A stretch of DNA of 27,221 nucleotides from Phycisphaerae bacterium (lineage in GTDB: Bacteria > Planctomycetota > Phycisphaerae > Sedimentisphaerales > Anaerobacaceae): positions 6,227-33,447 of the forward strand of contig JBBABK010000001.1 in assembly GCA_041657685.1 (NCBI GenBank), given 5' to 3'. The notes under the pieces are model-generated. The model was not told where the DNA came from, made no database searches, and saw only the letters and a program-made list of their open reading frames with translations. Below, piece by piece: positions 6,047-22,972 of the stretch (its first letter is position 1; each line of letters opens with the position of its first letter). The position numbers were made by a program, and so were the translations under genes.

Positions 6047-6545
6047 CTTCGAGTTGGAGCATTTTGGATTTGGTGCGACTGCCGCCGGGTGCACTAAATT
6101 GGCCGATTGAGCCGTCGCTGCGGATGACCCTGTGGCAGGGGATAATCAACGGAAACGGATTGCGGGCTAAAACGCTGCCGACGGCACGAATCGCTTTTGG
6201 ATTGCCCGCTTTTAAAGCTAATTGAGCGTAAGTAATGGTTTGGCGGGGCTTTATCTTTCGGCAGGCGGTTAAAACCGATGCTGAAAACGGCGTCAAACCG
6301 CTCAAATCCAGTTTGACATCCGCAAAATCGTCATCGCAAGTGCCTTGGTAATAAGCCTTTATGCGTTTTTGCAGCGTCGGCATATAGCGGGGAGCATACT
6401 CGGCTGGTCCGAAGGCGGTCGAAAAAAGCCGTTTTAACCGGCCGCAATCGGCTATCGGCAGATGGGCAGCGATGAGTCGGTTATCAGTGCCGACAAGGCC
6501 GAACCAGCCCCAGGCGGTTTTGAAAACGGTGAATCGCAGGTTCAT
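5979..6545 (-). CDS. ogt: Methylated-DNA--protein-cysteine methyltransferase
   Basis: ITYAQLA...GNPKAIRAVG...RNPFPLIIPCHRVIRSDG.IG.F...GG...K..ML.LE, including the PCHR active site. Confidence 0.93.
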   Translation of the reverse strand: MNLRFTVFKTAWGWFGLVGTDNRLIAAHLPIADCGRLKRLFSTAFGPAEYAPRYMPTLQKRIKAYYQGTCDDDFADVKLDLSGLTPFSASVLTACRKIKPRQTITYAQLALKAGNPKAIRAVGSVLARNPFPLIIPCHRVIRSDGSIGQFSAPGGSRTKSKMLQLEEILNPKQIQSTNFKTLKTVLNI

Positions 6546-19530: not shown

Positions 19531-21303
19531 TTATGTTTTTACAGCGACCTTGTGCGCCGCTTTGATTCCGTCGGGCAAGTTCTGTTCAGGATAACGCCTC
19601 TGCATCGCCGCGGCTACAAGTCCGACGAACATCGGCTGCGGATTCAACGGCCGGCTCGTCAGGCACGGATGCGCCTGGGTCGCCATAAAAAACGGATGTT
19701 CGGGCAGTTCGAGGATTTGCATAATCGGCTGGTCGGGCGCCTTGCCGCTGAATACCAGCCCCTTGCCTTCGAGCTTTTTAATATATCGCGGGTCGACTTC
19801 ATAGCGGTGGCGAAATCTCATTCGCACGCTTTCGGTTTTGCCGAACAATTCCCACGCGCGGGTATCGCGCCTGACTTCGATGTCCCTGCCGCCCAGACGC
19901 ATATTGCCGCCGAGTCCTTCGATTTTTTTCTGTTCGGGCAGGATGTCAATCACAGGCTCTTTGCAGTCCCGCTCAATCTCGGTGCTGTTCGCCCCGGCTA
20001 ACTGGCATACGTTACGCGCGAATTCGATTACCGCCATCTGGAAGCCGTAACAAATTCCTAAATATGGTAATCCGTTTTCGCGAGCGTATTTGACGCAGGC
20101 GATTTTGCCTTCGGTACCGCGCGTGCCGAAGCCGCCGGGCACGATAATCCCGTCAACTTCTTTTAGCCGCTCTGCGACATTTGAGTCATTGACATCGGTC
20201 GTATCAATCCATTTTATATCGACGTCACTGCCCAGCGCGATGCCGGCGTGTTCGAGCGAATTTATAATCGACGCGTAACTGTCGCGTACGGAAATGTATT
20301 TCCCCGTTATGCCGATGGTGGTCTTGTATTTTAGCGAATCCATCTTATCGGTGAAATCGCACCATCGCGCCCAGGCCTTTCGCTCGTTGCGAAGATTGAT
20401 GCGGTCTTCGATTTTCAATAATCGCAGCACCTCGAAATCAATTCCGCGTTCCCGCAGCATCGCGGGTATCATATAAATACTGGCAGAATCCGGCACCGAC
20501 ATAACGCGTTCGAGCGGCACGTTGCTGTATATGCTGATTTTCTGGCGAACTTTTTCATCGACCGTTCTCGCCGCGCGACACCCAATCATATGCGGCTGAA
20601 CGCCGAGCTGCATCAACTGCTTAATTCCCAACTGCGCCGCTTTTGATTTCTGCTCGCCGAGCGTCTTTGGCTCCATAATGTATGTAAGCGCGACAAAACA
20701 CGCGCTGTCCGGGCCTTCCTCGTACGCAAGCTCGCGCATCGCCTCGATGAAATACGCGTTTTCCAAATCGCCGACCGTGCCGCCGATTTCCACGAACACG
20801 ATATCGGCATCGGTCTCCATCGCGAGGTTTCGCAGCTTGAGTTTCACTTCGCCGGTGACGTGCGGAATCATCTGCACGTCCCTGCCGAGATAATCGCCGT
20901 GCCGCTCCTTGCTGAGCACGGAATTGAAAATCTGGCCGCTGGTCGCGAAATTAGATTTGCTCAGGTTCTGGTCGAGCATCCGCTCGTACGTCCCCAGGTC
21001 CATATCGGTTTCCATCCCGTCGTCGAGCACGAACACCTCGCCGTGGCGGAATGGATTGAGCGTACCGGAATCTATATTAAGATAGCCTTCGAGTTTTATC
21101 GGCGCGACCTTCAGTCCCTTGTCCTGCATCAGCTTGGCAAGGCACGACGAGAAGATGCCCTTGCCCAGTCCGCTCATCACGGTGCCGAGCACGAAGACGT
21201 ATTTCGTCCTGCCTTTGCGATAGCCTTTCGGTATCGGCGAGAAAAATTCGCTTTCCGTACTCGTATCACTTACCGCCGCCAGCAATTCATTATCTTTGCT
21301 CAT
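19531..21303 (-). CDS. pyrG: CTP synthase
   Basis: SGLGKGI, NIDSGTLNPFRHGEVFVLDDG.ETD.DLG.YER, GRDVQMIPHVT, EIGGTVGD.E, KTK-like KSKAAQ, VPGGFG.RG, GIC.G.Q, GGNMRLG, RHRYEV. Confidence 0.96.
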   Translation of the reverse strand: MSKDNELLAAVSDTSTESEFFSPIPKGYRKGRTKYVFVLGTVMSGLGKGIFSSCLAKLMQDKGLKVAPIKLEGYLNIDSGTLNPFRHGEVFVLDDGMETDMDLGTYERMLDQNLSKSNFATSGQIFNSVLSKERHGDYLGRDVQMIPHVTGEVKLKLRNLAMETDADIVFVEIGGTVGDLENAYFIEAMRELAYEEGPDSACFVALTYIMEPKTLGEQKSKAAQLGIKQLMQLGVQPHMIGCRAARTVDEKVRQKISIYSNVPLERVMSVPDSASIYMIPAMLRERGIDFEVLRLLKIEDRINLRNERKAWARWCDFTDKMDSLKYKTTIGITGKYISVRDSYASIINSLEHAGIALGSDVDIKWIDTTDVNDSNVAERLKEVDGIIVPGGFGTRGTEGKIACVKYARENGLPYLGICYGFQMAVIEFARNVCQLAGANSTEIERDCKEPVIDILPEQKKIEGLGGNMRLGGRDIEVRRDTRAWELFGKTESVRMRFRHRYEVDPRYIKKLEGKGLVFSGKAPDQPIMQILELPEHPFFMATQAHPCLTSRPLNPQPMFVGLVAAAMQRRYPEQNLPDGIKAAHKVAVKT

Positions 21304-21327
21304 ATTTTCTTTCTCTACTTATTAAAA

Positions 21328-21426
21328 CCACGAATGAACACGAATTAACACAAATCAATTACAAATTCGAAATTCTAAACCCTAAATCCTAAACAAATTA
21401 AAAATCCGAATATCTAATTTCCAAAC
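21328..21426 (+). repeat. Stacked decamer and heptamer tandem arrays
   Basis: cacgaatgaa cacgaattaa cacaaatcaa (period 10), then aaattcg aaattct aaaccct aaatcct ... aatatct aatttcc (period 7). Confidence 0.8.
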
Positions 21427-21431
21427 ATTTC

Positions 21432-22047
21432 GCCACAGAGTTTTTTATTTATTAAAAGCCACGGAGAACACACTTGTCCCGATGTCTTCTATCGGGAGAG
21501 CTCGCAGAGTAACAAGTCGAGATTTTCTTAACTTTCTAAACCTCTATGGCAAATTCCTCATTCATGCTGAAATCCAGTTTATCATTAGCTTCCTCACTAC
21601 TTTTAATCTTGGACATGATGAGCTTTTCGTCCTTGACATCTTCTTTCAGCTTATCAAGGTCATCTTTAACTCGACTTTGAAAATATTGCTCAAATTCTTT
21701 TCTGGAAAACGCATACAGTCTTTTCATTATCTCTTCGTTGTTTTCTCCAAGTTTTTCCCAACAGGAAACTATTCTATCAAGCACTGAAACCTGAACAGGA
21801 ATTCTGATAACCTCCTCATAAACAGAACATTCTAATACAAATCTAGCCCAATGCTGCGGCTTCTCCTCATAAGGCCGAAGGCCTATGTGTTCAATAAGCT
21901 TGAACTGGTACCTCATACGGTTCCTTTCTGCGGTTCTTCTACCAATTTTTACTTGTGTTTCGGGTTTCATATAGACACCTTCGAGATTTAATTTATTTTT
22001 CTCTGTGCTCTCTGTGGCTATAACATAAATTATTATTTCTCTGTGGC
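21432..22047. mobile_element. Putative non-autonomous cassette bounded by nested GCCAC(A/G)GAG inverted repeats
   Basis: Outer IR GCCACAGAG (21432-21440) / CTCTGTGGC (22039-22047). Inner IR GCCACGGAGAACACA (21458-21472) / CTCTGTGCTCTCTGTGGC (22001-22018). These enclose an AT-rich orphan ORF. No transposase is present. Confidence 0.5.
21536..21970 (-). CDS. Orphan hypothetical protein (144 aa; alternative start 21916), visibly AT-rich
   Basis: Uninterrupted 144-codon ORF, A/T-ending codons unlike neighbours, acidic/basic C-terminus. No motif recognised. Confidence 0.6.
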   Translation of the reverse strand: MKPETQVKIGRRTAERNRMRYQFKLIEHIGLRPYEEKPQHWARFVLECSVYEEVIRIPVQVSVLDRIVSCWEKLGENNEEIMKRLYAFSRKEFEQYFQSRVKDDLDKLKEDVKDEKLIMSKIKSSEEANDKLDFSMNEEFAIEV

Positions 22048-22869
22048 CAATTTATACCGCTTTACAAATTCCGCGTATTGCTCGGCTGTGTCGATACCGT
22101 CGCAGGTGTGTTTTACTTTGGCGACCAATATCGAATAGCCGGTTTCGATTGCGCGCAATTGTTCCAGTTTTTCTATTTGTTCCAATCTGCCCTGCGGCAT
22201 CTTTGTAAACTCTAAAAGGAAATCCCTGCGGTAAGCATAGATGCCGAGATGTCTCAAATACTGATTCACCGCGCCGATTCCATTGGCCTGCCTGTCATAC
22301 GGAATCACCGAACGTGAAAAATAGATTGCCCTTTGGGCATTGTCGCTCGTCGCTCGACGCTCGTCGCTCGTAACGACTTTTACGATATTCGGATTTGCGA
22401 TTTGGTCGGCTGATTCGAACCCGGCGGCGAGTGTCGCCATCGGGGCGTCGGGATTATCAATTAGAAGCTGCGCGACGGTGTCGATATTGGCGGGGTCGAT
22501 TTCCGGCTCATCGGCCTGCAAATTGACAACAATATCATCAGGGTTCAGGGTGCAGGGTGCAGGGTTCAGTTTTTCGTTTTTCCTGTCCCCTGTCCGCTGT
22601 CCGCTGTACGCTGTTTCTATTGCCTCGGCGATTCGGTCGGTGCCGCTGGCGCAGTCGGGGCTTGTCATTATGCATCGTGCGCCGAAGCTCGCCGCGGCCT
22701 GGGCCACTCTTTCGTGGTCGGTCGCGATAAGAACGATATCGGGCAATTTGGCTTTCAATGCCTGTTCGTATGTGTGCTGGATGAGGTATTGGCCGGTATC
22801 AGCGGCGAGAACTTTATTGGCGAATCTCGTGGATTCGTAACGGGCGGGTATGCAAACAATCACTTTCAC
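22033..22869 (-). CDS. kdsB: 3-deoxy-manno-octulosonate cytidylyltransferase (CMP-KDO synthetase) with two repeat-derived insertions
   Basis: IPARYESTRF..K.L, IATD, SGTDRIAE, VNLQADEP, IVKVV, AIYFSRS.IP, HLGIYAYR, LE..EKLEQLRAIE.G, GIDT. GTG 22869 has AGGAG upstream. Confidence 0.95.
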   Translation of the reverse strand: MKVIVCIPARYESTRFANKVLAADTGQYLIQHTYEQALKAKLPDIVLIATDHERVAQAAASFGARCIMTSPDCASGTDRIAEAIETAYSGQRTGDRKNEKLNPAPCTLNPDDIVVNLQADEPEIDPANIDTVAQLLIDNPDAPMATLAAGFESADQIANPNIVKVVTSDERRATSDNAQRAIYFSRSVIPYDRQANGIGAVNQYLRHLGIYAYRRDFLLEFTKMPQGRLEQIEKLEQLRAIETGYSILVAKVKHTCDGIDTAEQYAEFVKRYKLATEK

Positions 22870-22972
22870 GAACCCGAATCTCCTCACTGGCTTTTACCAG
22901 GCTGGGTTTTGACATTTCAGAGACCGCACCGGCCGGGAAAACACGCCGATGCCTCGGTCTAACAGGATACGT

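Follow-up and report, generated by a model that had tools for sequence, protein, structure and literature searches.

The 27,221-nt stretch of DNA analysed here (the window; positions 6,227 to 33,447 of contig JBBABK010000001.1 of the Phycisphaerae bacterium assembly GCA_041657685.1, order Sedimentisphaerales) contains, wedged between the genes kdsB and pyrG, an AT-rich open reading frame (ORF) of 144 amino acids, ORF144, enclosed by two facing arms of short repeats at positions 21432 to 22047. This interval probably belongs to a family of single-gene cassettes with repeat arms that is spread across the lineage, and the arms would serve as sites of exchange or insertion. The arms are conserved and dispersed, facing pairs of arms bound units with a content that varies between genomes, and the units recur at different loci with the homology ending at the arms. 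The metagenome-assembled genome (MAG) from which the window derives, a part of its contig C1, comprises 2.14 Mb in 318 contigs with an estimated completeness of 84% and a GC content of 48.6%. In the following, G designates genomes (G000 being the MAG of the window), C contigs, L fetched loci and X1 to X4 metagenomes.

The word GCCACRGAG is found four times in the 27-kb window as compared to 0.29 copies expected, with all four copies located around ORF144, two per side and inverted; none of 100 dinucleotide shuffles of the window yields four copies. A first-pass annotation made from the sequence alone had described two inverted pairs of this word around an AT-rich ORF, and its coordinates are exact, with GCCACAGAG at 21432-21440 and GCCACGGAG at 21458-21466 on the plus strand facing GCCACAGAG at 22010-22018 and 22039-22047 on the minus strand. 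Between the inner left arm (21458-21472) and the inner right arm, 13 of 15 positions agree. Rather than simple inverted repeats, the arms are each composed of a heptamer array of 9-nt period and, further out, a single unit. The 5' (kdsB-side) arm, read on the minus strand, is composed of the outer unit GCCACAGAG (22039-22047), an AT-rich spacer (22019-22038), which holds the kdsB stop codon (22033-22035), and the inner array GCCACAGAG-AG-CACAGAG with 9-nt period (22001-22018), from which an A-rich leader runs to the ORF. The outer unit is homologous in place to the arm of the same-genus genome G002, with the spacers identical at 17 of 20 positions as counted by eye, and it encodes, as the first-pass annotation had also stated, the end of KdsB, namely the residues A-T-E, before K and the stop codon. 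The composite of the 5' inner array is also present directly upstream of start codons on contigs C302, C290, C140, C178 and C121.

The 3' (pyrG-side) arm, on the plus strand, possesses the outer unit GCCACAGAG (21432-21440), an AT-rich spacer (21441-21457), nearly the same as the spacer in the arm of a cassette on C178, and the inner array GCCACGGAG-AA-CACA (21458-21472), which faces the 5' arm and pairs with it in the predicted fold. It is broken by a 28-nt hairpin module with the stem TCCCGAT/ATCGGGA (21473-21500), nested in the arm, behind which the displaced leftover array unit CT-CGCAGAG remains (21501-21509, plus strand, with the heptamer at 21503-21509; compare contig C17). The same TCCCGAT/ATCGGGA module is found inside a CACAGAG array on C17, and C30 and C249 have related stems next to arrays; the module gives the impression of another dispersed element, smaller still, that inserts into arms.

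The kdsB-pyrG junction is variable across the order. Of 80 kdsB loci fetched from different Sedimentisphaerales genomes, 69 hold both kdsB and pyrG. The junction is empty, with a gap of 9-51 nt, in 22 of the 69 genomes, intermediate in two (gaps of 201 and 232 nt) and filled in 45 (510-3186 nt); the empty junction that the first-pass annotation had envisaged therefore exists in relatives. In 18 of the 45 filled junctions forward arrays are located right after the kdsB stop codon and arrays in reverse orientation shortly ahead of the ribosome-binding site of pyrG, in 14 arrays are present on one side only, and the array pairs at this junction are predominantly facing (17 facing, two divergent, two tandem). 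Inserted genes of at least 100 amino acids fall into at least 25 unrelated clusters, including DUF5677, cyclase-like, FRG/PDC-S15, SIR2-like, small membrane, PDDEXK_3 (GxxExxY), 23S_rRNA_IVP, RhuM and ankyrin-repeat proteins as well as, judged from sequence motifs only, a GIY-YIG protein and a methyltransferase; several further families are without annotation. Passengers match defence models (PD-Lambda-3_A, E 4e-41; PDC-S15, E 5e-34; SIR2, E 4e-7), and 61 of 62 junction passengers are co-oriented with kdsB and pyrG. On a FastTree phylogeny of KdsB plus PyrG with 70 tips, at least 14 changes between empty and filled and at least 44 changes of passenger state are required, with sister tips often differing (ankyrin in L028 versus FRG in L048; cyclase-like in L066 versus empty in L083; ORF144 in the window versus SIR2-like in L027). 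In one of the junctions (L120, on contig C65 of G008) an IS630-like transposase, two ORFs by sequence reading only, has inserted beside a SIR2-like passenger inside the arms.

A different passenger is seen in the nearest genome, G002 of the same genus, which aligns with the window through kdsB and the whole right arm to position 21987, where an unrelated SIR2-like gene replaces the passenger and the alignment resumes only at the pyrG start codon. Therefore the passenger of these two genomes differs inside a conserved kdsB-side arm. Furthermore, two passenger families recur inside arms at different loci in different genera. The DUF5677 cassette of L022 (G034), located between unrelated genes, is 87.0% identical over 884 nt to the cassette of L016 (G032) and 77.3% identical over 869 nt to the cassette of L018 (G024), both at the argF-argD locus; in both alignments the two ends lie no more than 9 nt from the outer edges of the inner arrays, and the flanks are unrelated. 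Equally, the FRG cassette of L019 (G033, another locus) is 77.3% identical over 948 nt to the cassette of L023 (G063, kdsB-pyrG), with the alignment ending at the arms. The pyrG genes of the same genome pairs show nucleotide identities of 73.8% and 72.3%, which is below the cassette identity; therefore the cassettes are younger than the divergence of the genomes or have been transferred. The view of a cassette put forward in the first-pass annotation is supported by this cassette-sized homology between different loci, which ends at the arms.

A variable arm-bounded passenger, including an HNH_repeat protein, DUF5677 proteins and others, is located beside a conserved GxxExxY gene at the argF-argD locus of L015 (G027), L016 (G032) and L018 (G024), with more arrays between the genes, which makes argF-argD a second hot spot. 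The same layout of passenger and GxxExxY gene with different flanking genes is found in L017 (G022).

Within G000 itself, GCCACRGAG occurs in 50 copies, most of which are part of a composite in which GCCACAGAG is followed by a 5-30-nt AT-rich spacer and then by GCCACAGAG plus one to three NNCACAGAG units, the composite array GCCACAGAG(NNCACAGAG)n having a period of 9 nt. The heptamer CACAGAG is not over-represented overall but clusters in non-coding DNA, with 86 of its 188 copies located in the non-coding 12% of the genome and 25 clusters of at least two copies. Facing arrays bracket three AT-rich ORFs of this genome when the window is counted, in the left arm of which one unit is a variant (CACGGAG). 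The gene on C2 (11650-12297; L116) encodes a 180-aa protein with a match to PD-Lambda-3_A (E 4e-41), is flanked by genes for 319-aa and 516-aa proteins and is replaced by a different gene at the same site in G002. The gene on C178 (2813-3718; L117), between scpB and a ybjQ-like gene, encodes a 232-aa protein with a weak PD-(D/E)xK match (PDDEXK_5, E 0.008, below the Pfam cut-off); in same-genus relatives its two flanks are found on separate contigs. That the arms bracket unrelated genes elsewhere, as anticipated by the first-pass annotation, thus holds for these two loci and for dozens more in relatives. The left arm of the window has a near-identical counterpart of approximately 110 nt in the 3' arm of the C178 cassette.

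Beyond G000, the 18-mer GCCACAGAGNNCACAGAG has been detected in 34 of 41 genomes, each of another genus, with up to 47 copies per genome, compared to zero copies of the reversed control pattern. Among the viral contigs of IMG/VR, 104 stretches also carry the triple array, located between phage-like genes. Gene-less two-armed modules are common, with cores of 46-120 nt that are not conserved. On the viral contigs every array pair less than 200 nt apart is facing (16 pairs, 46-180 nt), and no divergent pair is found below 500 nt. Of the junction passengers, only the ankyrin repeats have homologues on these 104 stretches. One viral contig (IMGVR_UViG_3300031565_000084; 44.5 kb, GC content 0.58; L131/L181/L203) displays at least 12 triple CACAGAG arrays between genes, and one of its facing array pairs encloses a 151-aa ORF; through this contig the array family reaches phages and DNA of much higher GC content than the window. 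The repeat-armed single-gene cassette family is widespread and apparently undescribed; the literature searched contains no paper with the array sequence or with a connection between Sedimentisphaerales and inverted repeats.

Within an element, both arms tend to be built from the same type of unit, variants of which are CGCAGAG, CACAGAT, CGCAGAT and CACGGAT. With the CACAGAT and CACGGAT variants included, the unit type agrees in 72 of 137 facing pairs, a value reached in none of 5000 permutations, in a sample that is biased in that many of the loci were fetched with the CACAGAG pattern. GxxExxY (PDDEXK_3) genes on C73 (6552-6902) and C235 (2428-2763) are flanked by variant arrays (CGCAGAG; CGCAGAT/CGCTGAT), with the downstream arm in each case the reverse complement of the upstream arm, which shows that the arms co-vary in unit sequence.

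With respect to the passenger of the window, ORF144 (21536-21970, minus strand) has a GC content of 0.38 as compared to a mean of 0.493 with a standard deviation of 0.044 for the 2031 genes called in the genome. It is without match in Pfam, PHROGs, PADLOC and NCBIfam, ESM Atlas gave no usable hit, and its AlphaFold (AF2) model is poor with a mean pLDDT of 58. In 60 relatives, three same-genus genomes included, the gene was not found, and two large protein libraries contain only three homologues. Two of them, with 60% and 53% identity, are encoded at the kdsB-pyrG junction of short contigs of related MAGs, the KdsB and PyrG proteins of which are 73-84% identical to those of the window. Both are the second gene of a two-gene passenger, the first gene of which encodes a membrane protein of approximately 195 amino acids and overlaps by ATGA, and in L229 the two-gene passenger is enclosed by nested arms like those of the window. 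As the alignments with the homologues begin at Met19 (21914-21916) behind a conserved AAAGGAA, the protein probably has 126 amino acids; the ORF of 144 amino acids counted from the first ATG in the first-pass annotation is present, but its likely start is internal. The alignment with the homologue P0002 is ungapped over 126 codons with a dN/dS ratio of 0.15, and therefore ORF144 is a real gene under purifying selection. The suggestion that the cargo might be a defence or other accessory protein fits many cassette passengers, which are of defence type, but finds no database match in ORF144 itself. By its company, ORF144 is a candidate accessory or defence component that would have lost its membrane partner in the window.

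In the architecture of the cassettes, an arm consists of a terminal GCCACAGAG, an AT-rich spacer and an inner array GCCACAGAG(NNCACAGAG)1-3 with 9-nt period, and two facing arms enclose a passenger that is placed directly behind the stop codon of a gene of the host operon and co-oriented with that gene. In the window, the cassette fills a junction that normally measures 9-51 nt and supplies the last codons of KdsB. Exchange or insertion of passengers at the arms may proceed by a trans-acting enzyme that reads the phased heptamer arrays or their foldback, or by recombination between arrays in a way similar to cassette exchange between inverted sites. On the level of the transcript, the arms would pair into a stem of approximately 30 bp upon read-through of operon plus cassette. 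The duplex of the arms is calculated at -46 kcal/mol as compared to -15.8 ± 3.6 kcal/mol for shuffles (z = -8.3), and the 623-nt unit folds, at minimum energy, into a structure with 32 long-range closing pairs. Cutting of this stem by RNase III, as in the ORF-bearing intervening sequences (IVS) of 23S rRNA, could lessen the harm to the host operon. The RNase III gene rnc is present in 38 of 40 relatives. No promoter or terminator signal above the shuffled background was detected in the cassette by a scan limited to sigma-70-type signals, which fits expression from the host operon, and the unit has no Rfam match at E ≤ 1.

Alternatively, the kdsB-pyrG junction might be a generic hot spot of integration or exchange, the genes of which are swapped by homologous recombination in the flanking genes as in the 'minimal mobile elements' of Neisseria, with the CACAGAG arrays as independent repeats or regulatory 'punctuation' (leader, processing or terminator-like) rather than unit ends. 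This alternative is rather unlikely but a serious rival, and it draws on a number of observations that at the same time weigh against the arms as unit boundaries. Thirteen of the 45 filled junctions are without CACAGAG array, several of them bearing other repeat types, with GTCATTCCCGCG hairpins and TAGGGTGGGC palindromes at the same positions; therefore the hot spot is not used only by the CACAGAG element. About half of the arrays of the genome stand alone and end 8-64 nt upstream of a same-strand start codon of genes with ordinary GC content, and such lone arrays upstream of ordinary genes and in phage intergenic DNA, where arrays are frequent, fit a regulatory role as well. The homologues of ORF144 are syntenic in two related contigs. 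Recombination in the flanks, however, cannot explain the same passenger at other loci with homology stopping within 9 nt of the arm edges, nor a cassette identity above the identity of pyrG, and independent punctuation is at odds with the dominance of facing pairs at the junction and among all short-spaced viral pairs and with the co-variation of unit type between the two arms.

The synteny of the homologues also bears on the possibility that ORF144 is a vertically inherited lineage-specific small gene, flanked by ordinary intergenic words that had no role in its history, which is quite improbable. Homologues at the same junction in contigs with well-conserved KdsB and PyrG, together with purifying selection, speak for it, and the first-pass annotation had named a syntenic and vertically inherited ORF as evidence against a mobile unit. 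This is half the case, as the homologues at the same junction in two related MAG contigs indicate that the ORF144 passenger has been resident for some time and may itself be mostly vertically inherited. The absence of the gene from the relatives searched, same-genus genomes among them, the SIR2-like gene inside the homologous kdsB-side arm of the nearest genome, the more than tenfold excess of GCCACRGAG over expectation, the same nested arms in L229 and the deviating GC content argue against this history. An inverton, in which a site-specific invertase flips the segment and thereby switches the gene relative to read-through transcription from kdsB, is very unlikely; inverted repeats indeed flank a promoter-poor gene, but passengers are almost uniformly co-oriented with the operon, it is the passenger content that varies and not the orientation, no recombinase gene is located within 3 kb and no flipped form was seen in four metagenomes, of which contigs only were searched. 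That the interval is an integron-type cassette or an insertion sequence (IS) or miniature inverted-repeat transposable element (MITE) of a known family is hardly credible. A promoterless single gene co-oriented with its neighbours is integron-like and terminal inverted repeats, often flanked by TA, are MITE-like, but the best integrase match (TIGR02249) in the 84%-complete genome, with 85 bits, falls below the cut-off of 265, in place of an attC palindrome with GTTRRRY cores there are two arrays of direct 9-nt repeats, and the cassettes are dispersed singly and not stacked beside attI. Neither is there a transposase inside or a set of near-identical copies, the passengers of G000 being all different, and no target-site duplication was seen; none of the cassettes examined is a parent element that carries a transposase between the same ends, and the ends of the IS630-like element of L120 are unrelated to the arms. 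In this respect, the statement of the first-pass annotation that neither integron attC features nor an IS-type transposase are involved is upheld.

Further observations count against the preferred reading of an arm-bounded cassette exchanged at its arms. The closest empty alleles differ from filled alleles by a 19-nt replacement and not by a clean insertion, and no direct target-site duplication is seen at C1, C2, C178, L016, L022, L019 and L023, where the frequent TA next to GCC...GGC is inseparable from the inverted repeat itself. Contigs from X1, X2 and X3, which derive from two studies, carry the cassette of the window without any difference, and part of it was recovered in X4. The search for empty or circular forms of the window locus, proposed at the outset, was negative; no empty, circular or inverted form was found in the four metagenomes, for which assembled Logan contigs only were used, so that forms of low frequency would escape detection. 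The NN dinucleotides of the arms are not complementary, whereby the stem is interrupted every 7 bp, and RNase III was not found in the 84%-complete MAG of the window. No mobilising enzyme has been identified, with neither Y1/RAYT nor PDDEXK_3 genes tracking the array numbers. Despite these points, the observation of an armed ORF at the junction is confirmed and its first reading as a mobilised cassette partly supported; the cassette is real and non-random.

Two candidates for the mobiliser were rejected. In the case of the Y1/RAYT transposase, G035 (16 arrays), G027 (5) and G067 (5) have arrays but no Y1 match, whereas G025 and G066 have Y1 but no arrays, all judged on incomplete MAGs, and in the case of the GxxExxY (PDDEXK_3) nuclease no gene is found in G009 with 42 arrays or G028 with 34 arrays. 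An obligatory role of GxxExxY as a component of the element is not supported by the data. Likewise, a low-depth X1 contig that joins position 21509 to 22051 with unknown letters in between most likely represents the arms of another organism and was not counted as excision.

Among the known systems, the unit is closest to the ORF-bearing 23S rRNA IVS of Coxiella burnetii, Leptospira and others, yet is a member of none of the systems compared. The Coxiella IVS has a 28-bp terminal stem, is excised by RNase III and carries tandem GACAGAT heptamers just upstream of its ORF (PMC4990558). Cassette and IVS share a size of approximately 0.4-0.7 kb, terminal inverted repeats forming a stem of approximately 28-30 bp, one small ORF in the loop, tandem heptamers in variable number upstream of the ORF start, with the CACAGAG units of the window ending 30 nt before the first ATG, and an insertion in an essential transcription unit that is not destroyed. 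A further link is provided by 23S_rRNA_IVP genes, which are passengers at kdsB-pyrG in L031, L052 and L067. Unlike the IVS, the unit of the window is located between protein-coding genes and not in rRNA helices 25/45, ORF144 is not an S23p/23S_rRNA_IVP protein according to Pfam, the cassettes carry a great diversity of passengers and both arms have heptamers at a 9-nt spacing. Excision by RNase III, demonstrated for the IVS, is a conjecture for the cassette.

Integron cassettes likewise consist mostly of single promoterless, diverse and co-oriented passengers that are expressed from outside, but IntI, attI and attC are lacking here, two facing arms take the place of one 3' site and the units are scattered over operon junctions and not stacked. 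Minimal mobile elements of Neisseria, reportedly described by Saunders and Snyder in 2002 and by Snyder and colleagues in 2007, resemble the cassettes in that different whole-gene cassettes without a mobility gene aboard undergo horizontal turnover between the same conserved genes; they are without defining repeats and exchanged via flanking homology, whereas here conserved arms bound a unit that recurs at unrelated junctions. MITEs, Correia elements and REPIN-RAYT systems are non-autonomous elements with short terminal inverted repeats. Many gene-less two-armed copies (cores of 46-120 nt in the present family), the location at gene boundaries and potential RNA hairpins are common to these elements and the cassettes; in contrast to them, the arms are tandem heptamer arrays and not a unique inverted repeat or REP palindrome, no target-site duplication was seen, the non-conserved cores may be entire genes, and RAYT-like genes do not co-vary with array number. 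Phage morons, which according to Hendrix and colleagues are said to be defined by their own promoter and terminator, are equally single AT-rich accessory genes, often for defence or fitness, between genes adjacent in relatives; the cassette differs by the lack of a detectable promoter and terminator and by the inverted arrays that bound it. Finally, the pdif modules of Acinetobacter plasmids, reportedly described by Blackwell and Hall in 2017, are discrete modules of a single or few genes bounded by inverted recombination sites, and the same module is found in different contexts, but the sites of the cassettes are not 28-bp XerC/XerD dif-like sequences and are located at chromosomal operon junctions.

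Going one step further, the heptamer-array arms could tentatively be viewed as recombination sites used by a so far undescribed system of gene-cassette exchange, in which a protein acting in trans would read the 9-nt-phased arrays or a single-stranded DNA foldback and swap single, mostly defence-type genes behind the stop codons of housekeeping operons in Planctomycetota and phages. The 23S rRNA IVS would then be a specialised offshoot, and ORF144 with its membrane partner would, through guilt by association, represent a new accessory or defence module. This broader proposal may hold, with somewhat less confidence than is placed in the cassette family as such. If the arms define the exchange unit, they would provide a third way, beside integrons and transposons, to shuttle single genes and, if so, single genes can be wedged into essential operons with minimal damage. 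Genes between facing CACAGAG-type arrays would become candidate accessory or defence genes, and the 9-nt-phased heptamer arrays a concrete DNA target for finding the responsible enzyme. The cassette would account for the split essential gene pair and the foreign C-terminus of KdsB. Its likeness to the 23S rRNA IVS bears on an old puzzle, as the origin of the IVS has been open since their description around 1990 (PMC4990558).

Minor observations concern the empty and alternatively filled junctions. Some of the empty junctions L039, L051, L057, L058, L064 and L080 display a single (G/A)CCACAGAG-like word in the last kdsB codons, and AGAGGAAA, a sequence of the outer arm and spacer, recurs in the 19 nt that are missing from filled alleles of the L050/L074 clade. 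The outer arm unit may be partly native sequence or a docking site. A GTCATTCCCGCGAAAGCGGGAAT-type hairpin and a TAGGGTGGGCCTTGGCCCACC-type palindrome occupy the same junction positions in relatives, with these other repeat families present at the L036-type junctions L042, L054, L067, L077, L079, L091 and L092 and at L089, L095 and L105.

Short repeats extend beyond the cassette on both sides. The gene downstream of the junction, pyrG for CTP synthase (19531-21303, minus strand; Pfam CTP_synth_N, E 5.9e-98), is preceded by a region with other dispersed short-period repeats (21304-21431), which comprises a CACGAAT array at 21329-21348 and words of the AAATCCT/AATATCT type at 21363-21426. The CACGAAT array is also located upstream of pyrG in L046 and L065. 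As the word depth at 21270-21463 is raised approximately 2- to 19-fold over neighbouring bins in all four metagenomes, the repeats upstream of pyrG are high-copy across communities. On the other side, kdsB for CMP-Kdo synthetase (22033-22887, minus strand, followed in coordinate order by queA on the same strand; Pfam CTP_transf_3, E 3.6e-48) contains two in-frame short-period repeat insertions at 22342-22371 and 22538-22614. The KdsB matches in G002 and G006 are split into residues 2-91 and 118-284 with only approximately 12 nt between them in the subject, and a stretch of approximately 26 residues around the second insertion is therefore absent from these two genomes.

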